A program made the position numbers and the translations under genes. A DNA stretch of 64,000 nucleotides from an uncultured virus (IMG/VR IMGVR_UViG_3300028805_000004) (taxonomy: Duplodnaviria > Heunggongvirae > Uroviricota > Caudoviricetes). Below are positions 613 to 63,957 of this stretch, piece by piece. Each line of letters starts with the position of its first letter. Within the stretch, counting starts at the first letter, position 1. The DNA lies in the IMG/VR virus record IMGVR_UViG_3300028805_000004, one strand, 5' to 3'. The notes below the pieces were generated by a model, which was not told the origin of the DNA, did not search any database, and saw only the letters and a program-made list of their open reading frames with translations.

Positions 613-3399
613 TTACTCTGCTTTAATAGCCTTAGAAATCTGACTTGTAGAAAGGCCAGTTCTTTCAGCAATTTCAGCCTGTGTGTAGTTGGCAGAAAGG
701 GCCTTAATAAGACCAACCTTTGCTGCCGAGAGCTCTGTAGTATTCTCACGGGGCATTGCTAACTGCTTAACCTTATCCATATTGGCATTTGATAAAATAG
801 CCTCAAGATTTGTCTTTGCAATAGCGCCTGCCTGAATGGCTTCCCATTCGCGATCCGTGATTTCTACATGCTTTTTACCAGAACCAACAGTTTTTCTGGC
901 AGTACTGATAGCTTGGCCTCTAGCTTTCTGAATATGTTCCCAATCCATATCAGGATCAGCAGCTTTGGCCTGTTCTACCATTTTATTGCCTAAAATCTGG
1001 GCCTGGCGCTCTAAGGGTCTGTTTGCCTGAGCATCTCTTACCTTCCGCATCAAAGAATCCACCTCATCCTTATATTTTTCAGCGGCTTCGGGGTTCTTCT
1101 TGATGTCTTCTGTATGCAGATACTCTTTTCTTGCAGAATTCGCCAGTTTCTTCATCGAAATAGCAAACTCGGCACAAACAGCTTCCATTGGGTGACCGGG
1201 GTTGTCTTTAGAACCACCGGAGGTGAGCTTATAGACGTCCTCCTCGGTCCTAGCCTCTGCCATCTTGGTACTCGTATCCCTACGGGTCTCCCTAGTAAAC
1301 GTTACCTCCCCGGTTTTTCTGTTGGTATGAGGCTTCCAGTAATACCTATCCTTATCGGGTCGATCTATAATCTCACCAGTTTCGGGATCTGTATTGTATT
1401 CATTGATACCAGAACGAGCAGCACGTTTCTCAACATACTGAATGGATTTAGCACGTGATACAATGGTTCCAGCACCACCATATTTTCCATCGCCTCTATC
1501 CTGGTATATACGTTTGAGTTCATCAATATTGTTATCGATTTCAGATTGTTTCCAGTTGAGCCCGTGTTTTTCAGCATCAATGACAACCATGGAATGCTTA
1601 ATAGCTCGAACAAGATGTTCTTCAGGTGCTTCCTTTAAAGTCATATCGGTAATAAGATTGGATACAATTCCCATCTGCTTACCACGGGTTTTCTTATCCA
1701 TTTTTTTCATACCCTCATAACCAGGATATGCTTCTTGTGGATCAAAACCTTTCAATCCTTCAAAGTATTTTTGTGTTCTGATTTTTACCTTTCCACCAGG
1801 ATTATTAGCAGGAATAACCAAAACACTATCACCATCGAAATCTGCTCCAGATAACTGCTGAGCAACTTTGGGATTTATACCAATAGCATCAACAGCATTG
1901 CCAATATGAGATTTGGCCTTTTTGACGTTGTTATTTACAACAAGCTCAGGGATCTCGCATCTGCTGGCATGGGGAAAACGAACCAAAACAACTCGAGTTC
2001 CAGTTTTATAGTTCGGGGCGTATACCTCGGTTTCCTTCATAGCAGGCTCTGGCAGCAAGAAATTAGCAGTCTGTCCTGGTAAGGCTGCCGCTTTAAGATC
2101 AACCGCTGCAGCATCACAAGATTCTGCAAATTTCTCTAAAAGCGCCTTCTTTACCGTAGGATTGGTAAGATTACATATTTTCTCAAATTCCGCAGCCTGT
2201 TCTGCATATTTTTGCTTAAGCTGGTTTTGAGCCAACTTGACAGGCTGTTTTGAATAAAACTGAGAAGATAAGGCTCTTTTCCAATCGCCAACATCGCCTT
2301 CTTCGTTAACAACGTTAATGGCCGATGTATGGGTCTTGCCGTCTTTGCCAACATATTTTGTCTGGATAAACTCGAGATCGTCATCATCCTTTATGGAAGC
2401 TCCAAAAGGATTTTCTATAGAAACCTCGCCAGTAGTCTTATCGATTTTCTGAGGCTTAAAAACAGTGTTGTCCTTATCCCCAAAATATGGTGTTCCCTTA
2501 TGCTTGTTGGTATTGAAGATAATATCCACGCCAGGCGGAAAGTCTTCGTCATCAACATACATAGCCATGCCTTTAGCATAGTGCGAACCATTAATTCCGA
2601 TTCGAACCTGTGCATATCCTGCATTGCCAAGATTAAGGTCTTCACAGCCTCTTCTTATTTCGATAAGACCATCGCCTCGATCAACACCACCGTCTTCAGA
2701 ATATCTTACCCAAACTCGTTTTCCATCGATGTTCTGGATAGGCTCGCGCTTGGCAAGCTTCACACCATCAGTATCAATCATTGTGGCTGATACCGGCTTA
2801 ATCTCATATTTATGATCAAGCAAATCCTGATAATCAGAATCAGGAGGAATCAGACACTTTACCTGGGTTTTCTTGGTTGTGCCAAGCTGATCGAAATATA
2901 CAGAGTGCTGCTGATAACCCATATCTTTAAGCATCTGCACAGCAGTCTTCATACGGCTAGGTGTAACACCAAGAGCAATCTCTGTACCATCACCGATATC
3001 CACATATCTGTGTTTATCGACGAAGTCTTTGATTGTAGCAGCAGTCTTACCATTAAGGTTCTGTCTTATTTTCTTGGACTCATCCAAATAAGAACGAACA
3101 ACAGATTCGTTAACGCCCATACGTCTTCCGATCTCGGAATATCCATATCCTTTGTCTCGGAATTTCTGAGCAATCTGAACCTGGTTTGCTCTCCATTCGT
3201 TATGCCCAATAGCCCTTAAGGCTCTGAGCTGTGTTGTAGACATTTCCCATTCTTTGGCAATGTCTGCTTCTGTAAAGCCCCGTGAATGAAGCTGTTTGTA
3301 TACCTGGTAAATATCCAGGTTTCTCTGAGGCTTCTTTCCAGAACCCCAAGGATAACGCCCCGATCTGCGAGGCATACCATAGTGAAATAATTCAGACAT
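613..3399 (-). CDS. Single-subunit two-barrel RNA polymerase (YonO/cellular-RdRP-like) with fused HTH domains
   Basis: LSGADFDGDSV catalytic motif (1828-1842), upstream VVLVRFPH, QVR..KG (YAQVRIGINGSHYAKG); HTH-like segments near both termini; N-terminal LFHYGMPRRSGRYPWG tag. Confidence 0.82.
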   Translation of the reverse strand: MSELFHYGMPRRSGRYPWGSGKKPQRNLDIYQVYKQLHSRGFTEADIAKEWEMSTTQLRALRAIGHNEWRANQVQIAQKFRDKGYGYSEIGRRMGVNESVVRSYLDESKKIRQNLNGKTAATIKDFVDKHRYVDIGDGTEIALGVTPSRMKTAVQMLKDMGYQQHSVYFDQLGTTKKTQVKCLIPPDSDYQDLLDHKYEIKPVSATMIDTDGVKLAKREPIQNIDGKRVWVRYSEDGGVDRGDGLIEIRRGCEDLNLGNAGYAQVRIGINGSHYAKGMAMYVDDEDFPPGVDIIFNTNKHKGTPYFGDKDNTVFKPQKIDKTTGEVSIENPFGASIKDDDDLEFIQTKYVGKDGKTHTSAINVVNEEGDVGDWKRALSSQFYSKQPVKLAQNQLKQKYAEQAAEFEKICNLTNPTVKKALLEKFAESCDAAAVDLKAAALPGQTANFLLPEPAMKETEVYAPNYKTGTRVVLVRFPHASRCEIPELVVNNNVKKAKSHIGNAVDAIGINPKVAQQLSGADFDGDSVLVIPANNPGGKVKIRTQKYFEGLKGFDPQEAYPGYEGMKKMDKKTRGKQMGIVSNLITDMTLKEAPEEHLVRAIKHSMVVIDAEKHGLNWKQSEIDNNIDELKRIYQDRGDGKYGGAGTIVSRAKSIQYVEKRAARSGINEYNTDPETGEIIDRPDKDRYYWKPHTNRKTGEVTFTRETRRDTSTKMAEARTEEDVYKLTSGGSKDNPGHPMEAVCAEFAISMKKLANSARKEYLHTEDIKKNPEAAEKYKDEVDSLMRKVRDAQANRPLERQAQILGNKMVEQAKAADPDMDWEHIQKARGQAISTARKTVGSGKKHVEITDREWEAIQAGAIAKTNLEAILSNANMDKVKQLAMPRENTTELSAAKVGLIKALSANYTQAEIAERTGLSTSQISKAIKAE

Positions 3400-27537: not shown

Positions 27538-27765
27538 TTATTTAGAAATATCAGTGTAGTCGGCCTTCTCTTTGGAAATCGTCTTAGCGGAAACTCCGAT
27601 CAGCGCACCAAGGAAGGTGTCAATTGCTGTCAGAGTTCCGACGATCTGCTCACCATACGGGAAACCCCAAATGCCGCTCAGTGCGAAATATAGAGTTCCG
27701 CAAGCTGGCAGTACAATGAGACAAATCCATTTAAGAATGTCATATACTTTGTCAGGTAACCTCAT
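27538..27765 (-). CDS. Holin, Dp-1 family
   Basis: DKVYDILKWICLIVLPA..LSGIWGFPYGEQIVGTLTAIDTFLGALIGVS. Confidence 0.88.
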   Translation of the reverse strand: MRLPDKVYDILKWICLIVLPACGTLYFALSGIWGFPYGEQIVGTLTAIDTFLGALIGVSAKTISKEKADYTDISK

Positions 27766-28139: not shown

Positions 28140-28146
28140 ACCTCGT

Positions 28147-28533: not shown

Positions 28534-28919
28534 AGCATTGCCTCCTTTTCAAAATATGCTATCGGTATCTCACTACCTGTGTCTGATGTGTCATAGTAGT
28601 CACCGTCAACGACAGCAACAACGTGACTTCCGGTTGAGACCACATATGTGCCGTTCGGATGGTCTGCACAGAAGTCACGTATTGTATAGCAATCAGGACA
28701 AGTATCAGGAAGGAAATACCGTTTGAACCCAATCCTCAGTAGATAGTCACCCCAGACTTTGTTGGCCGATGGCATGTCTCCGACTAAAGCACCGACAGCG
28801 CAAATCCTAAGATATGTACTAGTCCAGTCTCCCGATCCGTCAACTCGGGTCAGAGCTCTCACCACACAGTCGCCAACCGATTTGCCATATGGATTTGGGT
28901 TAAAATATACAAACGACAT
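28530..28919 (-). CDS. Six-gene module, gene 5: putative papain-fold cysteine peptidase
   Basis: NPNP..VGDCVVRAL and HVVAVVDGDYYDT give Cys-His-Asp order. Confidence 0.55.
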   Translation of the reverse strand: MSFVYFNPNPYGKSVGDCVVRALTRVDGSGDWTSTYLRICAVGALVGDMPSANKVWGDYLLRIGFKRYFLPDTCPDCYTIRDFCADHPNGTYVVSTGSHVVAVVDGDYYDTSDTGSEIPIAYFEKEAML

Positions 28920-28938
28920 TTCCTTTGCTCCTGTTTAC

Positions 28939-29343
28939 TTACTGATCTCTACGAATTCTGTCAATGGTCTCACGAAGTCTTTCTCTCTCATGCTCAGACT
29001 TGGCCTGGTCATAGAGTTCTTCAAGACAAGCGATCATCCTGTCGTTGATACTATGACCGGAATATCCCCGATACATGTCGCCATAGGAATAAGAATGAGG
29101 CATATGCATACGTCCATAGGAATTCCCGCGATAGTATCCGTAAGAGTTCCCGTCCGCATCAAGGCCGTTAGAATATCCAGATTCCTTCATGGCTTTGAGA
29201 GTTACAATATTCAGCATAGTCTGGACGGCCTTATAGACCGAATCCATCTCTGTTGCCGAGATAGTGCCCTTCTTCGCAACTTCGTCAACCTGGTCACAAA
29301 GGAGGTCGTAGAGTTTGTCGAGTTTCTTATGCTCTTCTCCCAT
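28939..29343 (-). CDS. Six-gene module, gene 4 (helical with Y/G/S-rich linker)
   Basis: Start ATG after AAGGAGG; GNSYG repeats. Confidence 0.75.
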   Translation of the reverse strand: MGEEHKKLDKLYDLLCDQVDEVAKKGTISATEMDSVYKAVQTMLNIVTLKAMKESGYSNGLDADGNSYGYYRGNSYGRMHMPHSYSYGDMYRGYSGHSINDRMIACLEELYDQAKSEHERERLRETIDRIRRDQ

Positions 29344-29357
29344 TTTGATTCCTCCTT

Positions 29358-29786
29358 TCACCTAGAAATAATGAGGTTAGAATTTTCAACCAGAATCGGC
29401 TGATCCGAGATGTTCCTTACCGAGAAATTCTCGCAGCATCCACACCACACAGAAACGTTGGCCGAGACAGCGACATTTCCGAACTCCTCAACAGCAGCCG
29501 GAGTGATCGTCATCTGCGTGGCAGGAACAGTGTTACCGTCAATAGCTAATGCTAAAGAAATCGGTCCAACAGTTCCGCCAGTCGGGATAGCAATGTTAGC
29601 TCCGAACTGAACGAGGTAGTTCGTGGAAGGATTGCAAGGACAACCGGATAAACCTTTCAGAAGGAAGATGCCTGTCTCGTCACGATGACGGACAAGGCCC
29701 AAACGACCAGGCACCGGGTTTTCTGTAAATATAACAGTCTCTCCCGGATTCACGGTCTGCTGAGCATTAGCTGACCATTCTGCCAT
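29358..29786 (-). CDS. Six-gene module, gene 3: beta-sandwich protein (BclA C-terminal/C1q-like)
   Basis: Beta-rich pattern YLVQFGANI, ISLALAIDG, SVRNIS; Cys clusters CPC and CGCC. Confidence 0.6.
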   Translation of the reverse strand: MAEWSANAQQTVNPGETVIFTENPVPGRLGLVRHRDETGIFLLKGLSGCPCNPSTNYLVQFGANIAIPTGGTVGPISLALAIDGNTVPATQMTITPAAVEEFGNVAVSANVSVWCGCCENFSVRNISDQPILVENSNLIISR

Positions 29787-29797
29787 AGTCTACCTCC

Positions 29798-30535
29798 TCA
29801 CACGTTCCCGCACTGATTGAAGTTGCAGCCGCAGTTACATCCGTTGGGATTGGGAACACAATATGCGGGGACCGGAGCCGGATTGAGTCTCTGAAGCAGA
29901 GCAGCCGTCTGTGCAGCGTTGTCTGCCATGAGCTGACCGGTCTGAGCATTCTGGCTTGCAGCAAGGTTGGCCATCTGAAGCTGAGTGTTGAGCTGAGCGT
30001 TCTGGGCACGAAGAGTGTCAAGCTCCTGCTGGCACATCTTGTCGACGATGGTCTGAATTCCGGCAGTCTGGTTGGCGATAATCCGTGTAGCAACAGCCTC
30101 GAGAGCGTTCCGGTCAGCGCAGTTCTCGGTGGCCACCGTATACTTCAGATCAGCGATACCGGACTGAATACCGTTGTGCCCCTGAGTGAGAGCTGCCTGG
30201 TTGGAGTTCATAGCCTGCAGAATGTTGGTCATGCCGTTACAACGAGAGATCTCAGCGTTGGCGAAGCCGTTGGACACAGCGGAGGTAAGACCATTGATGC
30301 CGCCCATAATAGCCTGCTGATCGAAGCCTCTCTGCATGTCGTTCTGAATCGTGACGCCCATGCCGTTACCACGACCACCGCCGAATCCGCCCCAGTTGCC
30401 GTTCATACCAGCGAAGAGGAACAAGATCAGAAGCCACCAAGCGCCGTCGTTTCCGAAACCGCCAAAACCACCGTTGTTACCAGTCACTGCAGCCACGTCT
30501 GCCGCAGAAAGACCATTACCATCTACAAAACTCAT
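29798..30535 (-). CDS. Six-gene module, gene 2: Gly-rich TM + coiled coil + Cys-rich tail
   Basis: GGFGGFGNDGAWWLLILFLFAG, N/Q-rich heptads, C-terminal CVPNPNGCNCGC. Confidence 0.8.
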   Translation of the reverse strand: MSFVDGNGLSAADVAAVTGNNGGFGGFGNDGAWWLLILFLFAGMNGNWGGFGGGRGNGMGVTIQNDMQRGFDQQAIMGGINGLTSAVSNGFANAEISRCNGMTNILQAMNSNQAALTQGHNGIQSGIADLKYTVATENCADRNALEAVATRIIANQTAGIQTIVDKMCQQELDTLRAQNAQLNTQLQMANLAASQNAQTGQLMADNAAQTAALLQRLNPAPVPAYCVPNPNGCNCGCNFNQCGNV

Positions 30536-50061: not shown

Positions 50062-51987
50062 TTACTGCTTGGTAACATAGATCGCACTGTACGGCTTGGT
50101 CAGCATGCCAGAGCACCGGCCCTCAAGCAGGTAGGAATACTGGTTGTAGTCCATATCGAACTTGTCGAAGCTGGTGATCTCGCCGCCGGCATTGGTGCCC
50201 ACAGTGTAGTCCTTGAGGTTCAGGATCAGGAGACCGAAATTCGCCGGAACGACTTCCTTCGGAATACGGACGATGCGGGTAACACCGAACGCATCTGCGA
50301 TCTCGCTCTGATTCTTATACAGACGATAACCCTGGCCGTCCTTCATGAGTCTGTAGTCAGCCAGCTGACCTTCGGTCATGAAGCACACCGTGGAACCGGA
50401 GCCCTTGTAGTCTTCGAATGCGCGGACAGCAGTCTCAAGCATCTCATCAGCAACCTCGTACCGGGTCTTATTGCCGACAGTAACAGACTTCTTGATGGTC
50501 CAGAAGTTATCGTCGGAAATGATCGGATGGATAGAGCCCTCGTCGATCTTGTCCGGGGAAGTAGCGTCACGGCCGTCACCGAAGACGATTGCACGTGCCA
50601 GCTCTTCATTCAGCATCTTTCTCATCTCTTTCCAGAGCCATGCGATGATGTTGAAGTTCTTGATCCGGATGATGGTCTCACGATCAAGCTTCTGGCGCTT
50701 GTAGAACATGCAGGCATCCGTGGATCTCCGCATGAGCTTGAAGACTTCTTCCTTCTTCAGGTTGCCCTTAATATAACCACGGGCACGGGCCTCATCTTCG
50801 GTAATATCAGCCCACATGGATCTGAACTTCTCGAACGGGACATGAGAAACACCGCCGAGAACAACCGAAACCCACTCATCATCACGAGCGATAAGCATCG
50901 GCTCCTGATTGAGGTTGTGATCCTCCGGGAACAGGTAGTCGATGTTCTCGACACCGTAGGAGTCATGCTGAAGAGCTCTGCCATTGCGGCCATCCGGGAA
51001 GAATACGGTAAGATCATTCTGTTCTCTGAACTCATCGCCATAGTCGCCATGAGCCAGGGCCATGGAAACGGCCTTCTTGAACGTGCCGGCAGCCCTCAGG
51101 TTGGTGTCATCGAAAATATCATGCTCAAGAGACTGTCTCGTCTCGATGAAAGCATCAAGGGAAAGAACGCCCTGACCACCGGCGCCCTGCTCAAACGGAT
51201 TGTACTGCATGTACTCATCACCTCCAAAATCGTCATGTTCGGCTTCATCGCCGTCGTCTTCATCTTCGTCATCATCGTCAACCTGCTTCTTGATCTCGGA
51301 AGCATGGTCAACAGCATACTCAAGAGCCTGATAGAAGGCCGCCTGCTGCTCCTCATTCATGGTTGCGATAATGTCGTCGAGGGACTTTTTACCCTCAGTC
51401 TGTTTTTCAGCCACTGGCTTTTCCTCCTTTGGCTCGTCGGCATGCTCAATGACAGGCTCGACGGTGGGCTCGAGAGTGTCTTTGGCGAAGACCGAATGCT
51501 CGAGCGCGTTGTTATAGAAATAAAAATCCCCAGACTCATCATCCGGGGTATAAGATCCATCAGCATGCTGGATTGACGGATACTCGATATAAGCGCCCTC
51601 GTTTGCGCCGGCAAGAACAAGGCTTACCTCTCGGATGTTACCGTGGTAAACGTTTCCACCGGATTCACGGAGCTGGTTGGCATAGATAGAAAGTGCTGTA
51701 ACAACACCTTCTTCGATAAGCCCTTTGGCTTTCTGTCCATCAGCGCTGTGACTCAGAAGGCCATACATGTACATACCTTCCGGCCGACTTTCAAGAAGAC
51801 CCTTGCCGACTACAGCGTCGAGGTCTTTGTGGTTATGCTGATAGACGATCGGGACGATCTTGCCGTTGCAGTCGTCAAATGCGCTCTGCTTAATGGTTCG
51901 ACCATCCGCACACTTAATGTTGAAACGTGTTGCCCACCCAGCGAAATCATAGTTTGTCGCTGAGGGGTTCTTATACACATCCCCCAT
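50062..51987 (-). CDS. Prohead protease-scaffold-major capsid fusion (HK97 fold)
   Basis: FAGWA, YQHNH, LSI, IREVSLVLAGAN protease motifs; acidic linker; capsid domain ELARAIVFGDGR. Confidence 0.88.
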   Translation of the reverse strand: MGDVYKNPSATNYDFAGWATRFNIKCADGRTIKQSAFDDCNGKIVPIVYQHNHKDLDAVVGKGLLESRPEGMYMYGLLSHSADGQKAKGLIEEGVVTALSIYANQLRESGGNVYHGNIREVSLVLAGANEGAYIEYPSIQHADGSYTPDDESGDFYFYNNALEHSVFAKDTLEPTVEPVIEHADEPKEEKPVAEKQTEGKKSLDDIIATMNEEQQAAFYQALEYAVDHASEIKKQVDDDDEDEDDGDEAEHDDFGGDEYMQYNPFEQGAGGQGVLSLDAFIETRQSLEHDIFDDTNLRAAGTFKKAVSMALAHGDYGDEFREQNDLTVFFPDGRNGRALQHDSYGVENIDYLFPEDHNLNQEPMLIARDDEWVSVVLGGVSHVPFEKFRSMWADITEDEARARGYIKGNLKKEEVFKLMRRSTDACMFYKRQKLDRETIIRIKNFNIIAWLWKEMRKMLNEELARAIVFGDGRDATSPDKIDEGSIHPIISDDNFWTIKKSVTVGNKTRYEVADEMLETAVRAFEDYKGSGSTVCFMTEGQLADYRLMKDGQGYRLYKNQSEIADAFGVTRIVRIPKEVVPANFGLLILNLKDYTVGTNAGGEITSFDKFDMDYNQYSYLLEGRCSGMLTKPYSAIYVTKQ

Positions 51988-52003: not shown

Positions 52004-53239
52004 CTACTGTTTTTCAACAGGTTCTTCCTCCTGGGCTGGAGGTTGTTTCTGAGCTTCAGCTTCTGCCGACTGGTTGATGTTCTTGTTTCTCAGTTCATCA
52101 GCACCAGGATCCTTAGAAGGAACAAGACCAAGAATCTGCCTGAACTCGTTAGAAGACATAATCTCATTACGAGTAAGCTTATCCGCAAGGTCTGCAAGCT
52201 GAGTTGTCGGAACGAGCTTGAACGGTTCCCTAAAGAAAAGAATAGACTGCCTCTGAGTACGAGCGGTCTTACTAAGGAACTTCCATCTCATACTATCACA
52301 GATAGCTGAAACGAAAGGTTCAAGTATTCGGTTCTGGTATTCGAGTTTCTGGTCGTCAGTGGCAGTACCATCAAGGATAGCCTGAGAAAAGCCAATCTGA
52401 CTGAATACCTGGTTTGTGAAGTACTCAACCTGTGAAAGCATCTTGTTTTCAATGGCTCGGTTGAGCTGGATGACATGCTCAGTTCCGTCGATGTATGCTA
52501 CACCGTATTCGGAATCGGCAAGCTGCGATTTGAGGTCGTCTCTACGCTGCTTTGCCCTTGCCTGCTGAAGCTCTGTGCGTGCACTATAGGGTACCTGGAT
52601 GATAAGATCAAGCTTATTGGATGCCGATTGTTCGTCAATCGTATCAAGCAAGTCGAGTTTCCTAATTAGACGCTGCAATGTGGAATTGTACTCATTCATC
52701 ACAGAATATAACGGATTCTCAACGATTGCCGTGATGGATTTGGGAACAACAATCTCCTCAAACTCACACTTATCTTCGTTGTACACACGCACTCTTATGT
52801 GTTCTGGAAACCATTCCAGAATCTTGCCAACCTTCAAGGCCTGAATATCAAAGGATGTCGTCTCTGGATTGAAGTCTGCCCTTGTGATAACAATAGCAAC
52901 TACTCCTTCATCCATCATAGACATGACAACATCCTTGATGAACGCTCTACCTGTCTGATCCCGGTTGGCATTTAAAGTCAGACAGTTGTTAAGACCAGAG
53001 TTGATCGGTTCCAGGAATCTATTGTTTTCGTCCAAACGGACGTGTTTTATAGAAATCTGAGACACGTCAACCGCGATTCTGGTCATAAACGATGCAAGAA
53101 TAGAGCGCTGGTTCTCTCTTTTCAGGCGAATTCGATCCGGTCGAGAACCACCTCCGTATCCGCCACGTGAAATATAAGGCGTCGGGTCGCGGCCCAAGAA
53201 AGCATTCCACGCATGTTGTAGTCTTTCACCAAAACCCAT
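52004..53239 (-). CDS. Portal protein (HK97-like)
   Basis: RIAVDVS, ANRDQT, LTRNEIMSSNEFR..LGL; start ATG 53239 after AGGAGG. Confidence 0.88.
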   Translation of the reverse strand: MGFGERLQHAWNAFLGRDPTPYISRGGYGGGSRPDRIRLKRENQRSILASFMTRIAVDVSQISIKHVRLDENNRFLEPINSGLNNCLTLNANRDQTGRAFIKDVVMSMMDEGVVAIVITRADFNPETTSFDIQALKVGKILEWFPEHIRVRVYNEDKCEFEEIVVPKSITAIVENPLYSVMNEYNSTLQRLIRKLDLLDTIDEQSASNKLDLIIQVPYSARTELQQARAKQRRDDLKSQLADSEYGVAYIDGTEHVIQLNRAIENKMLSQVEYFTNQVFSQIGFSQAILDGTATDDQKLEYQNRILEPFVSAICDSMRWKFLSKTARTQRQSILFFREPFKLVPTTQLADLADKLTRNEIMSSNEFRQILGLVPSKDPGADELRNKNINQSAEAEAQKQPPAQEEEPVEKQ

Positions 53240-53252
53240 TGTGGGGTACCTC

Positions 53253-53963
53253 CTAGTTATACCTAGAAGTAGACGTACGTCTGTTCCTGCGCCTACTACC
53301 GTCACCGTCTTCATAACTTGTGCTGTACTGTTTTCGGATAGTACCACCATTTCCGTAGTTGGTGACATTATTATTAACAGTATGTTCTGCTTCTTTATAC
53401 TGAGCTTTATACTTTGTACCCTGGATCTCAGATGTACTGATACGGTACACGCCAGCGGCTGCGGCAAGAACATTTATGGCAAAGTTGGCAATCTTTTCGC
53501 CCCTTGTTCGAGTGCTTCTGTACGTGTCTTTTGCAGTTACGTCGATCTTTAGCTTTTTACAAGCATCAGCAATTTCAGCCTGTCTTCCATAAGTTTTAAG
53601 GGTCTTCTCGTCCCACATTTCTTGGACGTCCTTTAACTTGGCGCGTCTTTTCTGCTGCTTAGCAAGAACTTTTTCAGCTTTTTCGTGTTTTCCGGCCTTG
53701 CGCAATCTGTCAACACGAGCGTCAAGATTAGATAACTCGTTACGAGCCATGATTCCGTGAGCTCTGGAAACAGCCAACGCTTTATCGTTTTTGTTCAACT
53801 CACGAGTAAAACGTCTGGCCTGTCGTTTCAAGCCAGCGGTCGTGAGTGTTCCGTCCTCGTTCTGATATCTTCTTACGCCCCACTTCTGACCCTTTACTCC
53901 ATGGTGGGCAAGGTATACATCATATGCGAAAATATCAGAGGACAGTAATACTGATGTACTCAT
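53253..53963 (-). CDS. HHG-tagged putative virion cargo protein
   Basis: YLAHHGVKGQKWGVRRYQNEDGTLT.AG; basic helical body. Confidence 0.75.
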   Translation of the reverse strand: MSTSVLLSSDIFAYDVYLAHHGVKGQKWGVRRYQNEDGTLTTAGLKRQARRFTRELNKNDKALAVSRAHGIMARNELSNLDARVDRLRKAGKHEKAEKVLAKQQKRRAKLKDVQEMWDEKTLKTYGRQAEIADACKKLKIDVTAKDTYRSTRTRGEKIANFAINVLAAAAGVYRISTSEIQGTKYKAQYKEAEHTVNNNVTNYGNGGTIRKQYSTSYEDGDGSRRRNRRTSTSRYN

Positions 53964-54190
53964 TGCTCCTCCCATTTCTTGATCGTTCGATTTCTGACAG
54001 CGTCACTATACTTTTTAAGGTCAGACATCGGTGAGAAATATCCAACAGTGCCAGTTCTTTTGTCAACACCGTACATGCCCATATGAGTGGTAACAACAAA
54101 GTGCGAATTATTGTAGTCTATAAGACTGATCGGGTTTAGTTTCGGATAGACAGCTTTAAATCGCTGTATGGCTTTTTCTGATGTAAGCAT
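53960..54190 (-). CDS. Putative immunity protein (Imm35/YrhB-like)
   Basis: 76 aa, MLTSEKAI and GVDKRTGTV; TAATG overlap with the toxin-domain gene. Confidence 0.5.
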   Translation of the reverse strand: MLTSEKAIQRFKAVYPKLNPISLIDYNNSHFVVTTHMGMYGVDKRTGTVGYFSPMSDLKKYSDAVRNRTIKKWEEQ

Positions 54191-57100
54191 TAGTGCACCA
54201 CCTCTTTAATTTTCTCAGGATCAAAGTCGACATTGTCCAATCGGGCATACTGAATATTGTTAGCAACAGCCACAACGTTCATTGTATCCATTTTCATGTT
54301 GGCTTGTCCGTCATAAACATAGGCTACACCATCGACGACTTCATAAGCCATGCTATGTCCGCCACCGCCATCCCAGGTAACCATCAGATTTCCTCGAGCA
54401 CCGTCTCCTTGAGCTACGAGTTCTTTCTGGAGCTGCTCATTTACCTCTTGCTTGTACTGCTTTTGTGAGTCTTCAGAATATTTATGAACATACTTACGCT
54501 CAAGTTTTTCTGTATCAAGATGTTTTACCTTGGCGTCAGGATACCATCTTGTAACATCGCCATAATCATAACCAAACTGAACTTCGTTAGCCGTTACATC
54601 ATAACCACGACGTCTCATGTCATATGTGGCCGTACAGCACATGCAGTTATGCTTAGTATTTGTAGCAAGGTTCTTCCAACCTGGATTTACATCTTTAAGA
54701 TCTTCTTCTCGCGAAGCATTAGTATTCTGTTTAAGATGCAGTCCAGTTTCTTCGTCTACTGGTTCACCCTGTTTTCTCTTTTCAGCTTTCGATTTTGCCA
54801 TTTCTGCAGATATAACGTCCTTGACAAAGATTACAGGATCAGCAACCGCTGAAAGGTTAGAGGAGAAAAGCGCATTGACAACTGCTGATACACCATTGGC
54901 TATTCCCTCACTGTAGCTAACCTTCTTTCTTTGAGTTTGCTGGAAATTGAACATTGCCGTCTTAAGATCTGATCCGCTTGTTTTTTCTACGGTTTCTGTC
55001 AGCCTTCTCAGATGCACATCCATTGGTAAACTATCGTCAAATTCGTAACCAAAAGCATCAGCAAGCTCTTTTACTTCCTCTTCAGACATCATTCCACGAT
55101 TAAGAAATAGTACTAATGAGGCTTTCTGGTCATTCAAGGTTACTTCATCTTCTTTACTAACATCTTCCCAGCCATCAATAGATCCGCCTCCTCCACCTCC
55201 TTGGACTTCAAACTCCATAGATTTGGCGTTTATCTTAAGCTTGGAAGTTACCTTATCGCGAAGCTCTGCTGCATGCTTTTTGCCAGCAGAAGTCAATCGA
55301 CCGGCTTCGTCCTGAAACCTTCTTATGCCCCACTTCTGACCTTTGATGCCGTGGTGTTCGAGAGCATTATCATCGGCAAATATAACAGCATGAGCAATCT
55401 GTTCCAGCCGATACTTGTCACGTGTGCCTGCTGACGCAGCCTTACCCATTGCTACGCCCATTGGTATGGAGGCAATGTTAGGAAGACCAGCAACTGACGA
55501 AGCAAGCGTTGTAGCTACACCAGCTAATACCGCTTTGCCAATAGCTTTGGTTCGTACAGCTCTGTGTTCATTGTAAATATCATCAACAGTCATCTTTACA
55601 AGATGGTCTGCTAACTTTTCGTACATTTGCTTCGTGTTCGTTTGCCCACGTGCTATAGCCCTATCGATGTTTTTATCGTAACGCTTCAGCTCCTTCTCTC
55701 GAAATTTTTCAGCCTTTTCGTTACGCCGCAATCCAGCTTTTGTAAGTGTTCCATCTTCATTCTGAAACCGTCTAATACCCCACTTCTGACCTTTTATACC
55801 GTGGTGGGCTAGGTAGTTGTTATAAACAGAGAGGTCTGAATGATTAATATAATACTCCTCAGCCCGTCTGAAAAAGTCTTCAGCCTGACGTTTTTGCCAC
55901 AATGCTTTTTGTTCTTCTTGTTCGTATCTATTATCAAGAGCTTTTAGTTTCTTGGCTTTATCGGAATCAGAAGGCAGTTTTCGAAGCGCTTTTGCTACTT
56001 TTACTCGAAGCGGTGATACTCGAGACAAAATCTCGTCAGCTTCAGAAACATTTTTTTGCGCTTTACGAACACCCCTCTCCATTTCTGCTGCATCTAATCT
56101 TGCCTTACGTTTTGTAGTTTTAGCAGCTTTTTTAGCAGCACGAGTTTGCTTTAAAGTATCAAGGTCAAAATCCTGTGGAGTGCCTTTGTAGTCTTTCATG
56201 AATTGCCTCATGGATCTGAGACTTTTTATCATAGAGTCTACATCAGCATCTGTTCTTGCCGCTTTTCCAAGATCTTTTTTCATCTCTTCATAGCGTTTCT
56301 CCATATGGGCTTCGAGTTCTGCTCGTTTCGTATCTGCTTTTGCTTTTTTCTCGACGGGTTGTTCAGAAACTTTTGATTCTGCGTTCTCCTGACCCTTGGA
56401 CTTATCTGACTTTTTAGTTCGCTCTTCTAAGTAGTCAAGTCTTGCATTACGAGCGTCATCTTTCTGCTTTTTCATAGCATACTCGTAAGCTTCAGGATTC
56501 GTCTGCTTCACAAAGTCGGAGTCGTACTTTTTCCCATTAAGCTCTATGGTGTTACCACCACCATTGTTGGGCCCATCCGGATCATTTGGCTTAGTAGATG
56601 CTGAAGGCTTGTCAGGATCACCCTTTTGGTTCTTTGCATCAACTGTGTATTTGCTAATGCGCTCACGAGATTCACGATCAAGTTGATCTTTCTCGCGCTT
56701 GTAGTCGATGTCACGCTCAGCAGAAAGTTTATCTTTCTCAAGAGCTCTCTGATGATCACGCTCTTCTTTCTCGAGCTGACGCTGATACTTGAGTTCGTCG
56801 GCAGCTTTCTGCTTACGTTCTTTCTCGCCAGAAATATCCTCAATGTAATCCTTGGTGTCCTTGATAGCACCAGTTACATCACGGATAGCCTGGAAATATC
56901 CAACACCTCGCTTAACCTGCTCAGCAAAGCCTTTGGCGGCTCTATCGCGTTCGTCGAGTCGATTGTTGGCCTCTCTAAGCTCTTCGACAGTGAACTTGTC
57001 AGCATTCATGGTCAGGCCGAGACGAGTTTTAGCCCAAACCTTCTTCTGGCGCTCAAGCTTCTCGGCAGCTTTACGAGCTTTTACCTCTTTAGCCTTCTGG

Positions 57101-58194
57101 ATTCCGCCACGCGCAGCCTTCACAAGACCCACACCGACCTTACGTCCGGCGGACATGGCGCTTTTAATACCATAGCGCTTGGCTCCAGCAGCAGTCAGAC
57201 TTCCGTCAGCTTTCTGGAACCGTCTCACACCCCACTTCTGACCCTTGATTCCATGATGAGCCAGATAGGATCTGTAAGAATAAATATCATCATTTACAAT
57301 CACTGAATGACTAACCTCCTCGCCTTGCAGCATACTTCGAGCTTCTTTACTGTATTTGTCGAGATCCGACTTCATTCTTTTAAGTTCATTGTCGGTGTAC
57401 AAGTGTACTGAAGATGTATAGTCAATTGCGTTAGTGGTTTTACCAACACTCCGCAAAGCGGATTCTGTTACATATTCCTCTAAGATAGCGCCAGCATACC
57501 CGCCGTCTCTTGATGTCGATATGTATTTCTCAGCCTGATTACCCAAAGCCTCATCAGAGATTTTCCTAGAAAAATCTTGCAATGTAGACAGCGCTTTATC
57601 ATAGTCAGACCTAACACGGTTTGGATTTTTACCATTAGCAACAAGGCAATAATCGTATGAATTGTATGAACCATCATCCGCAAGGTTTTTAGGTCCCTGC
57701 CTATATGCTTCGACAATTCGTTCTTTAGTCCAACCTTTTATAGTCCGACGATCGGCTTCTGCAAGGCCTGCCACTGTACGATAAAAATCAACATTTTTTT
57801 CATAGTCTTCAGCACAAACGCTGCCAGCTTTTTTAACGCTCATGGCGAGAGATTCGATTTTATCGGCAGTAGCTGTATCTCTTGTGATGACATTGTCTAC
57901 TAAATTGTCAATTTTATTTTTAACCCTGTCAAAGTCATTAGCCCGACGATTATTAGCATCTACTTGCCTAGCTTTTGCGGGATTCAGAAATCGTTCTTTA
58001 AAAGAGAGTTGCTGGTATTCAGGCCGATCGCCAAACCTATCAGATGCCTTGAATATCTTCTTTACTATCTTGTAGTTCTTTTTGGTGTTACTTAAAGGAT
58101 CTTTAATTCTTGTCCCATCGTAATTCTGGAACCTTCTTACACCCCACTTCTGACCTTTGATGCCGTGGTGGGCTAAATATGTTGTGTAGCTCAT
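54190..58194 (-). CDS. Four-module HHG-tagged polyprotein with C-terminal papain-fold toxin (Tox-PL-like) domain
   Basis: Four HHGIKGQKWG[VI]RRFQ tags; C-terminal HNCMCC..MRRRGYDV, GGHSMAYEV, VYDGQ; start ATG 58194 after AGGAGG. Confidence 0.8.
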   Translation of the reverse strand: MSYTTYLAHHGIKGQKWGVRRFQNYDGTRIKDPLSNTKKNYKIVKKIFKASDRFGDRPEYQQLSFKERFLNPAKARQVDANNRRANDFDRVKNKIDNLVDNVITRDTATADKIESLAMSVKKAGSVCAEDYEKNVDFYRTVAGLAEADRRTIKGWTKERIVEAYRQGPKNLADDGSYNSYDYCLVANGKNPNRVRSDYDKALSTLQDFSRKISDEALGNQAEKYISTSRDGGYAGAILEEYVTESALRSVGKTTNAIDYTSSVHLYTDNELKRMKSDLDKYSKEARSMLQGEEVSHSVIVNDDIYSYRSYLAHHGIKGQKWGVRRFQKADGSLTAAGAKRYGIKSAMSAGRKVGVGLVKAARGGIQKAKEVKARKAAEKLERQKKVWAKTRLGLTMNADKFTVEELREANNRLDERDRAAKGFAEQVKRGVGYFQAIRDVTGAIKDTKDYIEDISGEKERKQKAADELKYQRQLEKEERDHQRALEKDKLSAERDIDYKREKDQLDRESRERISKYTVDAKNQKGDPDKPSASTKPNDPDGPNNGGGNTIELNGKKYDSDFVKQTNPEAYEYAMKKQKDDARNARLDYLEERTKKSDKSKGQENAESKVSEQPVEKKAKADTKRAELEAHMEKRYEEMKKDLGKAARTDADVDSMIKSLRSMRQFMKDYKGTPQDFDLDTLKQTRAAKKAAKTTKRKARLDAAEMERGVRKAQKNVSEADEILSRVSPLRVKVAKALRKLPSDSDKAKKLKALDNRYEQEEQKALWQKRQAEDFFRRAEEYYINHSDLSVYNNYLAHHGIKGQKWGIRRFQNEDGTLTKAGLRRNEKAEKFREKELKRYDKNIDRAIARGQTNTKQMYEKLADHLVKMTVDDIYNEHRAVRTKAIGKAVLAGVATTLASSVAGLPNIASIPMGVAMGKAASAGTRDKYRLEQIAHAVIFADDNALEHHGIKGQKWGIRRFQDEAGRLTSAGKKHAAELRDKVTSKLKINAKSMEFEVQGGGGGGSIDGWEDVSKEDEVTLNDQKASLVLFLNRGMMSEEEVKELADAFGYEFDDSLPMDVHLRRLTETVEKTSGSDLKTAMFNFQQTQRKKVSYSEGIANGVSAVVNALFSSNLSAVADPVIFVKDVISAEMAKSKAEKRKQGEPVDEETGLHLKQNTNASREEDLKDVNPGWKNLATNTKHNCMCCTATYDMRRRGYDVTANEVQFGYDYGDVTRWYPDAKVKHLDTEKLERKYVHKYSEDSQKQYKQEVNEQLQKELVAQGDGARGNLMVTWDGGGGHSMAYEVVDGVAYVYDGQANMKMDTMNVVAVANNIQYARLDNVDFDPEKIKEVVH

Positions 58195-58217
58195 ACAAGC
58201 CCTCCTGCTTTTGGTGC

Positions 58218-58766
58218 TCACATGCTCAAGCCATGATTGCTCAGATAGTTCTGGTATGCAGAAATATCAGAATGCTTTACATCCTTACCTGCATGGCCAT
58301 CATTGGTAATCTTTGCATCCTGGAAACTGACTGTAACGTGTTTCCTAAAGTATTCTTCCTGTTTCTTTTTCTTTTTCTTGTATCTTTCTAACGACTTGGC
58401 AGCCTTCTTTGTGGCTTTCTGTAAACGTTTGTGATTTTTGTCTATTTCGCGCTGCTTCTTTTGCAGCTTCATCAAGGATCCAACGCCTTTAAGCACTTCT
58501 TTAGAGGAATTGGCAACGTTTTCCCAATTTACTTTTTCTCCTCTTTTCAACGGGAAGTAAATTTCATCAGCAATACCTTCTCGCCAGCCTTCATCTATAT
58601 CGGCCTTTAAATCTTCTATTGTTTCACCATCTTCATTAGTCAAAGGTTTACCACCTCCGCCGCCTTGTCCTTCAAATTTGACAGACTTGGCATCGCTGGC
58701 ATCTTTATGATGTCCCCACTTCATGCCTTTTACGCCATGGTGGGCAAGATAAGCTCCGTAACCCAT
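58218..58766 (-). CDS. HHG-tagged putative virion cargo protein
   Basis: YLAHHGVKGMKWG; FEGQGGGGG; start ATG 58766 after GAGGTG. Confidence 0.75.
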   Translation of the reverse strand: MGYGAYLAHHGVKGMKWGHHKDASDAKSVKFEGQGGGGGKPLTNEDGETIEDLKADIDEGWREGIADEIYFPLKRGEKVNWENVANSSKEVLKGVGSLMKLQKKQREIDKNHKRLQKATKKAAKSLERYKKKKKKQEEYFRKHVTVSFQDAKITNDGHAGKDVKHSDISAYQNYLSNHGLSM

Positions 58767-58773
58767 AAGCACC

Positions 58774-60522
58774 TCACTCAAACATGTCAATGTTCTGTCT
58801 ATAGGCAACCCATGCATCCATCAAGGCCGATACATTATCGATCTTGTCAGCATAACGCTTCTTCCAAAGCTTACGGTTGCCATTGGTATCTTCAAGAACC
58901 ATGGCATTGCCCATAGTCATACTCATTAGTTCCTCATCAAAGAGCAGCATGCGCTCACTGGCAAGTTTCTTCAACTCACCGAGCGGAACTGACTCTGTCT
59001 TTACTCCCTGGATTACCTTAACAACTCCAAACTCGCCTCGATCTTGAATATAACGAGCAACAAACTCCTTAGCATTATACGGGTCGTAGCCCATGCAGAG
59101 AACGTCGTACTGTTGGTCTTCCATAAACTGGTCGAGGTCGTCGTAAACGTCCATCATGTTGAGGACTGTTCCTTCAAATACGACGAGACTGCCTTCATCC
59201 ATGAACTGACGATACTTGTCCCTTGCTGCCGGCTGTAGCCTTTCATAAGTTAACGAAGAAATATAACTTCGAACCTTGATTCCGAACTTCCCGTTCTTCA
59301 ACGGGAACAAGAAGGTGGCTGCACAGAAGTCGTCACCTTGAGATAAGTCCAAACCAAGAGCACACGGCATCTTCCAATAGCTCCGTTTCCGATGTGGCTG
59401 TATCTCAGCATACGTGAAGTAGTAGGTGAGCCCCTCCATCGGTATCCCGAAACGCTTGGCAAGAATATCGTTGCGAGCAGACGGAACGTTTTCAGCTCTT
59501 TCGACGTCGAGCTGGTAGGTTTCCCAGGAAACTGTCTTTCCGAGATTCGGATTAGCTTTGAGCCACATGTCAGGATCGTTGACTTCCGAAACATCGTCAA
59601 GACGGTAATACCAAATGGACACATGCGGTGCATAATAGTCACCTCGAAGGATGTCCATTAACTCCATTTTGATTGAGTCTCCAGCTCCGTTACGAACACA
59701 ACCCTCAGAGCTAGAAGCGATGATGATGTAGTCGTCCAATCCACCCTTTCGAGCACCCTGTTCAAGAGCACCGACCGGATCTTCTCGCAGAACACCAGAG
59801 AGCCACTCGTCTACTGTGGAATACTTCACTCGTAATCCCTGAAGCTTGTCAATGACCATCGGTCTGATCTCAAGAAGGGAGTTTGTGAGAAGATTCTCGA
59901 TACCCTTTTTGGTACTGGCAAGCTTTGGACGGTTCATCTTGGAACCAGTGGTGTTCTGCATCGAGCCATTGGTCAGAAATCTGAAGAATGGTCCTCGTGA
60001 CTTGGTGATGGAGGTCTTGAATGGAGACAAAACCTCCTCGGACTGTTTCATCGTTGGTGCAGTTGTGACCTGATGAGTTGTCGACGGGTCTACTGTCAAG
60101 CCGAATGCCTGAATGCAGAAGTCGTACATACTCTTAGCCGCTCCTCGAGCAACAATCAGATACTGCTTTGTTGTCAGACGCTTCTTGACTGTCCGAACAA
60201 CGTAACGAACTCCGTGTCCGTTAGGGTCTGGCTCCGGTACCGGCTGTCTTACAAAGTAATACCAACCATAGAGCTGTTCGGCCCAAAGCTTAAAGCTGTC
60301 CAACAAGAAGAGAGGCTGACCGTCGGTTAAGGTAAGTTCGTTTTCACAGAACTCAACCCAGCCGTCGATAGCCTCATCATCGTAAAAGTATTTTGGATTG
60401 GCTATGAGAGCGTCAATCCTATTCATCTCCATAGAGATTTCTTCATTGACCGGTATCTCCCCCCGAAGAACCTGATCACGAAACTCTTTGTAGTATTTCG
60501 GGGTAGCTCGATTTGAAAGCAT
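58774..60522 (-). CDS. terL: Terminase large subunit
   Basis: VARGAAKS Walker A, TVDEW, LGLDLSQGDD, YDPYNA, KIDNVSALMDA. Confidence 0.93.
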   Translation of the reverse strand: MLSNRATPKYYKEFRDQVLRGEIPVNEEISMEMNRIDALIANPKYFYDDEAIDGWVEFCENELTLTDGQPLFLLDSFKLWAEQLYGWYYFVRQPVPEPDPNGHGVRYVVRTVKKRLTTKQYLIVARGAAKSMYDFCIQAFGLTVDPSTTHQVTTAPTMKQSEEVLSPFKTSITKSRGPFFRFLTNGSMQNTTGSKMNRPKLASTKKGIENLLTNSLLEIRPMVIDKLQGLRVKYSTVDEWLSGVLREDPVGALEQGARKGGLDDYIIIASSSEGCVRNGAGDSIKMELMDILRGDYYAPHVSIWYYRLDDVSEVNDPDMWLKANPNLGKTVSWETYQLDVERAENVPSARNDILAKRFGIPMEGLTYYFTYAEIQPHRKRSYWKMPCALGLDLSQGDDFCAATFLFPLKNGKFGIKVRSYISSLTYERLQPAARDKYRQFMDEGSLVVFEGTVLNMMDVYDDLDQFMEDQQYDVLCMGYDPYNAKEFVARYIQDRGEFGVVKVIQGVKTESVPLGELKKLASERMLLFDEELMSMTMGNAMVLEDTNGNRKLWKKRYADKIDNVSALMDAWVAYRQNIDMFE

Positions 60523-61815: not shown

Positions 61816-63957
61816 TTACTTAAGAAGCTTAAATATCTCGATGTCTGACAGCCAGGCATCACCGAGTGCGTTCTTGAGACCGTCGCCAAAGTGACCAGGA
61901 TACTCAACGCCCTTTGGATCAAGCCCCTTGCAGTAAGCAATGATCTGAACAGCTGTGACGACATACTGTGTTTCACCCTTACGAATGTAATGGCCTTCAA
62001 AAGCCTTACGTGTAAGCGGACCAAGATCTCCGTCTTCCTTAAGACCAGAACCCCAGTCAAGGTTTGCAGCATGCTGAAGACATCTCACCATCTGGCGGTT
62101 GGTATTACTCCCTCGAATGCCATCAAGCTCGATCTTGAAACCTGTGAACTTGACGGATTCGGTCTGTCCCTTGAACACCAACTCCTGAATGGGTGTGAGC
62201 TTCTTGGCCGGCTTGACGTAATGGAAACGAACTCCGTAACCGAACTTCCGCCCATAGTCTCTCCAAGCCGGTTCAATGAACTCTGATCTGTAGGGCTGCT
62301 CTCTCTGGATCTTGGAATCCATTCCGAAATCCCATTTTGAAATTACCGGAGCGTAATCGGACGCCATAACAAACGTATGGAACGTCGGATCACCAGGAGC
62401 TGCAATGATGACGATGTCACCAGCCTGAAGATCTTCCTTGCGATCAATCTTGTCAGCTACACCGAGATTGACAAGCTTGATGAAGTCCTTGGTAAGGTCT
62501 CCATGACTTCCACCGAGGTCAGCTCGCTGCCTGGTCCATCCGAGATTATACATTGCAGCTGAGGCAAGTCTGTCACAAGACCACTCGGAAGTTCTGCCAA
62601 TCGGGAAACACTTGTTGTCACCGTACAGGTTGATTCCTTTGGACCCATGCGGATCGAGACTGAAGGCATAGTCCGCTACAGCGTCGAGCTCCTTAAGCCA
62701 CTGCTCCTTGGTGAACGGGATTGCAGTAAGCCGCTGACCCTTCATGTGGAACACGTAGTCCTCGATAAGCTTAAGGCTGGTCTTCGGTCCGAACTCACCG
62801 TCAACTTCAAGCTTCCCTCGCCAACCCTTCTGGTACTCACGGACAGCAAGCATCGAGAGTCCGCCGTAGTCACCATCAAGGTTTCCGGTGTACCAGCCAA
62901 GGACACGCAAGCACTGCTGCATCTCTCTGACTGTGAGCTGATACCGGCTGCCGGAAACAAGAACGATGACAGTATGACCCTTGGTCTTGGTTACGAGAAT
63001 ATCACCTCGAGCCAGCTCTTCCTGGGACTTCACGTAAACCTGGTCGAAGTAGCCACTGTTGGAAAGGGCAGACGGTTCGTCACCAGTGTAGAAGTCTTTG
63101 ATGTCGATGCCAGAATATTTGATGCAGCATCTGACAAGACGAGCGCAGTCGGTCTCACAGGGCGTCGTGACCTTAGAGAGATCGAAGTCTACTTTCTTGG
63201 CTACGGAATATAAGCTCTGGTTGTTGGACTGGTCGTAACCAATGTTGTCGTTGGCACAAGCAGCCTCCATGGCTTCAGCAATGAGCTCTCGTACGAAGAC
63301 AGACTTGGCTCTGAATATGAACCAGCCCTTGGGATGATCGTAGTAGGGCTGGGTTGAAACCTCGCGACCATTGTTGTCTCCGGCCTGTCCGCCAGAAATG
63401 TTGCCGTTCTCGTCAATGCGAGCTGATCCGATCGTAACCATTGTATGTACTCCTATGTCATACTGTGTGAGATTAAACTCGTTGATGATCCTCATTACTG
63501 AAGAAACATAGGTTGGGCCGGTAGCATAGCCACGCTGGCTAACCTGAGTGATTAAAGCTCGAGGATCTGTAATCTTCAGCACATCACGATACTTGTAATG
63601 CCCTCCAGTCTTAGCATCTCGCATGAACTGAAGATAGTCATAAAAGCAATCATCCAGAGTTCTATACTTGCGGAAAGAATCCCAAATGGTTGTTGGCACT
63701 CCGTTGTAAACCTCAGGGGTGTATTTCTCAACTGTATCACCATGCCAGAACTCTGACTTCCAGGTTGAATTGAGAAGCTCTGTCTTCATTCCAAGGCAGT
63801 TGTTAGCCTGGGAATATAGTTCACTGCCTGAACCAGTACCGAAACCAGGTTCTAGACAGGCCTGGGCAATGAGAACCGACGGCAAATAACCGCTAAATCG
63901 TAGACAAGCAGCAACAGCTAAAGGTGCTACAAGCTGCACGTATCCATCTCGTGTCAT
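61816..63957 (-). CDS. Multidomain endolysin: GH73 glucosaminidase + cysteine-peptidase/amidase-like domains + peptidoglycan-binding repeats
   Basis: IAQACLE..NNCLGMK..GYAT; DC..GH; LDGDYG, VDGEFGPKT, LDGIRG, EDGDLGPLT. Confidence 0.85.
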   Translation of the reverse strand: MTRDGYVQLVAPLAVAACLRFSGYLPSVLIAQACLEPGFGTGSGSELYSQANNCLGMKTELLNSTWKSEFWHGDTVEKYTPEVYNGVPTTIWDSFRKYRTLDDCFYDYLQFMRDAKTGGHYKYRDVLKITDPRALITQVSQRGYATGPTYVSSVMRIINEFNLTQYDIGVHTMVTIGSARIDENGNISGGQAGDNNGREVSTQPYYDHPKGWFIFRAKSVFVRELIAEAMEAACANDNIGYDQSNNQSLYSVAKKVDFDLSKVTTPCETDCARLVRCCIKYSGIDIKDFYTGDEPSALSNSGYFDQVYVKSQEELARGDILVTKTKGHTVIVLVSGSRYQLTVREMQQCLRVLGWYTGNLDGDYGGLSMLAVREYQKGWRGKLEVDGEFGPKTSLKLIEDYVFHMKGQRLTAIPFTKEQWLKELDAVADYAFSLDPHGSKGINLYGDNKCFPIGRTSEWSCDRLASAAMYNLGWTRQRADLGGSHGDLTKDFIKLVNLGVADKIDRKEDLQAGDIVIIAAPGDPTFHTFVMASDYAPVISKWDFGMDSKIQREQPYRSEFIEPAWRDYGRKFGYGVRFHYVKPAKKLTPIQELVFKGQTESVKFTGFKIELDGIRGSNTNRQMVRCLQHAANLDWGSGLKEDGDLGPLTRKAFEGHYIRKGETQYVVTAVQIIAYCKGLDPKGVEYPGHFGDGLKNALGDAWLSDIEIFKLLK

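Follow-up and report, generated by a model that had tools for sequence, protein, structure and literature searches.

Predicted histidine-directed maturation of tagged head cargo proteins in an uncultured tailed phage and its relatives

Why should a tailed phage encode, between its terminase and its portal, three proteins that carry the same short peptide six times over? The question is raised by an uncultured member of the Caudoviricetes (IMG/VR record IMGVR_UViG_3300028805_000004), of which a stretch of 64,000 nucleotides, here called the window, was analysed; all window features given below lie on the minus strand. An earlier, sequence-only reading of this DNA had proposed that the peptide is a portable tag that loads diverse payloads into the prohead, and that the largest of the three proteins is a polyprotein cut at His residues. 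The combined reading that best accounts for the locus, and which is probable, is that, much as in T4, a prohead protease cuts after His and matures head-internal cargo, the largest open reading frame (ORF) being a shuffled polyprotein. Of its parts, cleavage after His by the prohead protease appears very likely from the sequence patterns and the placement of the tagged proteins inside the head very likely too, whilst their ejection into the host, which is suggested by analogy and by a polymerase that would be useful in the virion only if delivered, has about an even chance.

The locus is bounded upstream by the gene for the terminase large subunit (TerL; 58774..60522, PF20441 and PF03354). Next to it lie the genes for a 182-amino acid (aa) tagged protein (58218..58766, tag core 58713-58748) and for a 1334-aa protein of four modules (54190..58194, tag cores 58141-58176, 57229-57264, 55777-55812 and 55327-55362), followed after a small untagged ORF by that for a 236-aa tagged protein (53253..53963, tag core 53877-53912). 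The 182-aa and 236-aa proteins have one tag each, at the start, and the 1334-aa ORF has four (His 9, 313, 797 and 947). When the window is scanned in all six frames, exactly six copies of H-H-G-x-K-G-x-K-W-G appear, with the first His at 58742, 58170, 57258, 55806, 55356 and 53906, which bears out their number, positions and strand as first read. All six match the Pfam family DUF7211 (PF23847, four times in the 1334-aa protein) at more than 27 bits, above the curated cut-off; the whole 63,889-base record gives the same six matches and nothing further, and none is found in 14 control genomes. Pfam describes DUF7211 as a 25-residue family with no function attached; the tag, for which the sequence-only reading knew of no functional characterisation, is thus an existing family.

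In the tag alignment the His is invariant and the peptide behind it is strongly conserved. Unrelated sequence had been said to follow each tag, and the payloads do diverge, but behind five of the six tags this divergence begins only after a common tail of about 14 residues, [VI]RR[FY]Q-x-x-x-G. Among the six copies, synonymous differences are found at 70 of 147 degenerate codon pairs for the same residue; the tag is therefore conserved as a peptide and not as DNA, and the same divergence rules out a recent DNA duplication as the source of the copies. Another common feature, F-E-x-Q together with a poly-Gly stretch, lies soon behind the tag in the 182-aa protein (58640-58680) and in module 4 of the 1334-aa protein (55185-55215).

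The hydrophobic-x-His pattern with which the tag opens recurs in a 641-aa prohead protease-scaffold-capsid polyprotein (50062..51987; PHROG 3270, PF05065). Its scaffold linker (50962..51573) contains eight [LIVMA]-x-H-[ASD] sites, at His 141, 164, 182, 228, 251, 289, 313 and 341. All eight His of this scaffold fit [LIVMA]-x-H-[small], against a shuffle mean of 0.74, and none of 100,000 shuffles reaches eight. The pattern extends to 39 relatives, dereplicated at 70% from 187 and including 1706, ReqiPepy6, Scap1 and Oengus, whose linkers hold 242 His in 6,688 aa. The hydrophobic position of the motif (P3) is L, I, M, V or A in 231 of 241 cases (128, 37, 30, 24 and 12, respectively), and the residue after the His (P1') is A, S, G, N or D in 222 of 241; for His of the capsid domain, L or I stands at P3 in only 21 of 155. 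The 39 scaffolds together contain 215 [LIVMA]-x-H-[ASGND] sites, some of which are homologous columns and hence non-independent, compared with a mean of 23 and a maximum of 41 in 2,000 shuffles, and their capsid domains contain eight in 12,381 aa. Further linkers have 4–8 sites each (30 of 30). Chance as the source of tags and sites is thus ruled out, by the shuffles for the scaffold and by the 14 tag-free control genomes. Within scaffold words of the form hydrophobic-x-X-[SA]-[DE], His is enriched 24-fold at X and Glu is depleted; a variant with Gln in place of His, noticed by eye at some of the junctions, shows no enrichment in scaffolds and was dropped.

The sites also bracket the scaffold precisely, as cut sites would. 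The His141 site is invariant and lies directly behind the protease, whilst the last, at His341, stands before the capsid domain and leaves 300 aa in the window protein, a length that matches HK97-fold capsids. Fold searches with a model of the polyprotein return the HK97 fold for residues ~326-641, and the linker is mostly of low confidence or disordered in the model. The putative catalytic His51 and Ser100 of the protease are present in 39 of 39 relatives. The scaffold His pattern therefore looks as would be expected of prohead protease sites. The T4 motif is I/L-x-E. The same site logic, with Glu, is described for both T4 and SPN3US (PMC7411985).

The tag opens with the same kind of site. 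P3 of the tag His is nearly always L (L71, M2, I2 and V1, n=76; in a second set L350, I13 and V1), and in 122 of 127 N-terminal tags the His stands at residue 6-23, which is the length of T4 propeptides (PMC7411985). Moreover, when the motif as fixed from the scaffolds is applied to the 38 residues before internal tags, it is found at 61 of 92 unique junctions as compared with 19 of 808 payload windows, and in a second set of 134 other proteins, with relatives of the first set left in, at 120 of 188 junctions as compared with 51 of 1,544. The spacer before the tag His is acidic and the peptide behind it basic. In the window, all three upstream sites fit the scaffold motif and, given the enrichment at junctions in relatives, are predicted cuts: V-S-H-S at His296 (57304..57315), I-N-H-S at His785 (55837..55848) and I-A-H-A at His935 (55387..55398). 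They lie 17, 12 and 12 residues before the tag His, and not 13–17 as first read. The predicted products of the 1334-aa ORF have 287, 472, 138 and 387 residues (~33, 54, 15 and 43 kDa). Hence the proposal of a polyprotein cut at His sites gains support from the motif in the scaffold and before internal tags, the cleavage itself being predicted from sequence. The C-terminus of the 182-aa ORF has the form of a decayed site-plus-tag junction, with V-K-H-S and then L-S-N-H-G and a stop (His codons 58274 and 58235), a feature absent from the sequence-only reading. The 1334-aa ORF ends in V-V-H and a stop (54190-54201); such a motif occurs in the last 12 residues of only five of 134 relatives, and this end is probably due to chance.

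It could also be argued that nothing is cut and that hydrophobic-x-His is a binding or metal-coordinating glue for scaffold, portal and accessory proteins. The His pairs would be able to bind metal, no cut site has been measured experimentally, and no prohead protease is known to cut after His; the second point, like the lack of a solved structure of a relative, also tells against the preferred reading. However, the sites sit at both of the domain borders where cuts are needed and in disordered acidic linkers, they hardly occur in the mature capsid domain or inside payloads (21 sites in 34,207 aa for the latter), and their P3 and P1' preferences resemble the repeated motifs of T4-type proteases, all of which makes such a glue quite improbable.

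Two further proteins open with the same kind of site. The portal (52004..53239, PF04860) has an N-terminal L-Q-H-A site (His9, codon top 53215), and an L/I/V/M-x-H is found in 20 of 36 distinct anchored portal N-termini, nine unanchored ones having been left out. At the other end of the window is a single-subunit, two-barrel RNA polymerase (613..3399, PHROG 4291) that has a D-F-D-G-D motif, in keeping with the catalytic D-x-D-G-D, and a leader L-F-H-Y-G (His6). In this family the N-terminal L-x-H is present in 14 of 14 distinct anchored sequences, with four truncated ones left out. A matching N-terminus is found in approximately 250 annotated phage records. The 2008 paper on phage 1706 is reported to have identified 15 virion proteins by mass spectrometry. 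In agreement with that number, 15 ORFs are marked as structural in the GenBank record of that phage (EU081845.1), including portal, capsid and tail genes; those labelled 'structural protein' include the polymerase ortholog, orf75, whose leader reads L-Q-H-Y-G, and orf7, in which two tags are accompanied by additional L-x-H sites. The leader together with this label suggests that the polymerase is packaged, making it a candidate virion polymerase. For the presence of the tagged cargo in the virion, as first proposed, the support is likewise at the level of the 1706 label.

Which part of the tag would then be the address? The sequence-only reading had assigned this role to the H-H-G..K-W-G peptide. 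Yet in three related loci without DUF7211 (L022:3574-5159, L024:9002-15750 and L025:1307-7513) the same slots hold L-x-H followed by a peptide of the Y-N-H-N-H-D..G-R-F or the K-Y..Y-R-Y type, and the scaffolds of these loci keep their His sites. The polymerase and a gene behind the portal have two further peptides after L-x-H. Across two slots, 54 of 74 non-core ORFs start with L/I/M-x-H as against seven of 239 elsewhere, a count that is partly circular as 44 of the 74 carry DUF7211; of the other 30, 12 fit, ten of these from the three DUF7211-less loci. Because relatives fill the same slots with L-x-H and other peptides, L-x-H would appear to be the common element, and the K-W-G peptide one of several swappable partners, so that only the L-x-H portion of the proposed address is shared. 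A module with Y-D-P-x-K-A-H-E-Y-Y follows the portal in one of two forms, either as a separate protein with L-x-H in front or joined to the C-terminus of the portal itself by way of an L-S-H site (L114:792-2957, with L135 and L143 likewise by local sequence and length; L001:21274-21966 and L009:13086-13919). When the tag alignment was co-folded with the protease-scaffold-capsid polyprotein the score was 0.00 in two runs, which is evidence neither way.

The genomic distribution of the tag is consistent with a role in the head. The tag is present in 79 of 84 loci found with the terminase or annotated around it, many of which are near-identical, and two of the five misses are loci cut short. Conversely, 69 of 71 loci found by the tag hold a terminase, portal or capsid of the lineage; of the remaining two, one has neighbouring lineage genes before the contig ends and the other has none. 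In five whole genomes, 12 of 12 tag matches are inside the head module. These loci are related and the counts are not independent, but linkage to head genes, the lack of which had been named as a result that would speak against the proposal, is borne out. The tagged genes are not restricted to the interval between terminase and portal; they are found on both sides of the terminase and are equally common just upstream of it, and confinement to that interval was rejected. The family is also very large: a profile built from 58 tags hits 52,193 clusters of proteins (50% identity) at E up to 0.001.

Several observations weigh against cleavage after His and a head-internal role. The window protease domain is below the Pfam cut-off (PF04586, Peptidase_S78, E 0.0088, a family common on homologs) and is not reached by the fold searches, in which only the capsid domain is found. 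Of the 36 portal N-termini, 16 lack the site, and the strict upstream site is absent from 31 of 92 junctions in the first set and 68 of 188 in the second. In L099 tags occur among tail genes, and in L122 they occur with no head gene in view. The virion evidence from 1706 is a record label, and orf62 and orf71 of that phage are labelled structural too without having a tag; the structural list may include contaminants or proteins that enter by another route. Finally, the tag His is followed by H, Y, F or W, in place of the A, S, G, N or D of the scaffold, so that the L-x-H of the tag itself may be cut slowly or not at all. In L099, the two tagged genes among the tail genes (7504-9356) have N-termini that are near-copies of those of tagged genes before the portal.

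The last of these points leads to the possibility that the protease cuts scaffold-type sites only and that L-x-H-[HYFW] is an uncut look-alike, which docks on the protease or the prohead and stays intact on each module. Besides the sharp difference at P1', this would explain the strong conservation of the peptide behind the His and the presence of a second, scaffold-type site upstream of tags in polyproteins, for which there would be no need if cleavage at the tag were efficient. On the other hand, about a third of junctions have the tag site only, and L-x-H is kept before four other unrelated peptides, as is expected of a cut site. An uncut tag is thus possible rather than likely, although it is a variant of cleavage-based maturation, and the probabilities of the two overlap.

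Comparison with relatives shows the modules of the 1334-aa ORF in other arrangements. In 120 multi-tag proteins, with two to seven tags, modules recur in different orders. P0122 has modules 2–4 in common with the window at 85–94% but different front modules, and in P0232 module 2 is joined directly to the payload that stands alone as the window's 236-aa ORF, a payload that is an internal module of P0253 and P0245 as well. Together with the decayed junction of the 182-aa ORF, these cases show that fusion, fission and shuffling take place at the cassettes, as every module has its own site-plus-tag cassette. A putative fusion of the RNA polymerase to tags in P0277 was rejected, since it gave no BLAST match.

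The payloads themselves are diverse, as had been proposed for a portable tag: 74 dereplicated payloads fall into 44 families. Most are basic (72 of 74, or 97%, have a net positive charge), and of 131 representatives scanned about 119 have no Pfam domain besides the tag and about 12 have one. Domains found on payloads elsewhere are GNAT, 2H-phosphoesterase-like, barstar, CW_7 and papain-fold, with GNAT and papain domains together in P0121; a MuF domain is found neither in the tagged ORFs of the window nor in the 131 representatives. The scarcity of recognisable domains and the basic charge would be explained if the tagged proteins were head-internal and processed, but served as DNA-condensing or structural filler and not as delivered effectors. 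Against this stand the polymerase, the enzyme-like and barstar domains and a papain fold paired with a small ORF, together with a payload turnover far faster than filler needs, and such a role is doubtful.

The window contains one known enzyme domain in its 1334-aa ORF, a papain-fold toxin 1 domain (Tox-PL1; 54301..54648, PF15644, above cut-off) in module 4. Its Cys1184, His1280 and Asp1295 are intact, and N-C, H and D are invariant in 14 of 14 sequences; fold searches with the module give only weak papain-like matches (E above 0.03). The module is followed by the untagged 76-aa ORF (53960..54190), for which Pfam and PHROG give no match. In six of six loci inspected an untagged ORF of 72–95 aa follows the papain module, and in four of the six it is similar to that of the window (E<0.03). 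The two may form a toxin-immunity-like pair, with the 76-aa protein as the candidate immunity or inhibitor partner. Module 1 (57319-58122) resembles an ADP-ribosyltransferase in the ESM Atlas at 0.83-0.84, which is below threshold, and module 2 finds nothing there. The notion of toxin-like payloads hence holds for a minority, of which the papain-fold module is the one case in the window, most payloads being basic and without a known domain. As in some systems the role described for Tox-PL1 domains is that of a releasing peptidase (PMC3482391) and the triad is intact, this domain could instead be what releases the modules of the 1334-aa polyprotein. That is highly improbable, as most multi-tag proteins have sites without a papain domain, PF15644 occurs in only four distinct relatives besides the window (n=120) and in 0 of 131, and every relative checked has the scaffold motif.

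A mechanism can be envisaged in which one maturation code, hydrophobic-x-His, is read by a prohead serine protease fused before the scaffold and capsid. The tagged proteins, expressed late from within the head gene region, would join the prohead core by means of an acidic, Tyr-rich leader ending in L-x-H, acting as a scaffold mimic, and/or the basic Gly-Trp peptide behind it. The protease would then very probably cut after His, freeing itself, shredding the scaffold at 4–8 sites, trimming many portals and dividing the 1334-aa ORF into four modules and acidic spacers of 12–17 residues. With about equal chances either way, the mostly basic modules would stay with the DNA and some would enter the host with it, among them the polymerase and modules that are enzymes, the papain-fold domain for example. 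Between genomes, as comparison shows, modules fuse, split and change order. A broader version, somewhat short of an even chance, is a lineage-wide code of two parts, in which a His-specific protease site is combined with an interchangeable short peptide that becomes the new N-terminus and steers cargo into the head and out with the DNA. The peptides would be H-G..K-W-G, Y-G..S-G-R-Y, Y-N-H-N-H-D..G-R-F and others, the cargo would include an RNA polymerase carried in the virion as well as very many effectors that are so far uncharacterised, and the polyproteins would be arrays of recombining cassettes.

The phage is assigned to the 1706/Oengus/actinophage BI-DJ-AU-CC lineage by the order of its genes, by the fusion of protease and capsid and by its RNA polymerase of one chain. 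In this lineage Lactococcus phage 1706 and Faecalibacterium phage Oengus are grouped with clusters of actinophages (10.1101/842583). Its TerL is 68–71% identical to those of Gordonia, Streptomyces and Rhodococcus phages and of gut phage contigs. Upstream of the head module lies an endolysin with glucosaminidase, ELLD and peptidoglycan-binding domains (61816-63957), in the order seen in clusters AM and AU. A cluster of small genes that includes a Gly-rich 245-aa protein is found at 27765-30535, and similar genes adjoin tagged genes in L005 and L122. The protease-capsid fusion is noted in PMC5513430; the tag is not mentioned in the available parts of that paper or of 10.1101/842583. Within a literature search that had subscription papers and supplements outside its scope, nothing was found on DUF7211, the tag strings, a His-cutting prohead protease or the virion proteome of the lineage, and searches of solved structures by sequence with the polyprotein, the tag and the polymerase found nothing. 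What appears to be new here is the connection of the tag with the motif of the scaffold, with the site upstream of internal tags and with the leader of the polymerase, which is absent from the Pfam description of DUF7211.

Should the proposed maturation be correct, a function would be given to a very large family of phage proteins, and the head cargo and cut positions of a common gut and soil phage lineage would be predictable from sequence alone. His would join the known cut specificities of prohead proteases, and a virion RNA polymerase would be available in culturable siphophages. A loading tag of 20–30 residues in Lactococcus, Gordonia or Arthrobacter phages would then be a Gram-positive counterpart of the T4 capsid-targeting system (CTS).

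The polymerase resembles the virion RNA polymerases of N4 and crAss-like phages and the YonO-like polymerases in being a single chain with D-x-D-G-D (10.1101/842583, PMC5512222); the former notes the RNA polymerase as a signature of the lineage, and packaging is not proposed in its available parts. The MuF-fused toxins and polyvalent proteins (PMC3482391, PMC5512222) similarly have variable modules among terminase, portal and capsid genes, are predicted to be packaged, and share the Tox-PL1 domain; a small downstream ORF, here a putative partner, is found in both. Of the several recognisable conflict-enzyme domains that mark the chain of a polyvalent protein, the 1334-aa ORF of the window has one known enzyme domain, besides the sub-threshold resemblance of module 1, and P0121 has GNAT and papain. 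The tag system is nevertheless not a MuF system, as judged from the tagged proteins scanned, which lack MuF, have tag-and-site cassettes between modules and mostly consist of modules without a recognisable enzyme; neither 'KWG' nor '1706' occurs in the available text of PMC5512222. SPN3US, with its protease gp245, also has one motif (A-x-E) common to capsid, portal and head-internal proteins and a virion RNA polymerase in the head (PMC7411985), but it is a jumbo myophage, its propeptides are long and its polymerase has five subunits, and no shared conserved peptide after the cut is described in the accessible part of that source. The closest parallel is in T4, where the internal proteins and Alt have a short N-terminal leader, the CTS, that ends in a motif for the protease gp21 repeated in core and capsid precursors, the cargo genes lie near head genes and the cargo includes an enzyme (PMC7411985). 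The tag system would work like the T4 system without being a member of it, because His and not Glu is at the predicted cut. Moreover, in contrast to T4, the phages are siphophages whose protease forms one chain with scaffold and capsid, the predicted cut would leave a conserved peptide on the cargo, polyproteins arise through internal tags, and the four proteins of T4 are set against tens of thousands of payload clusters.

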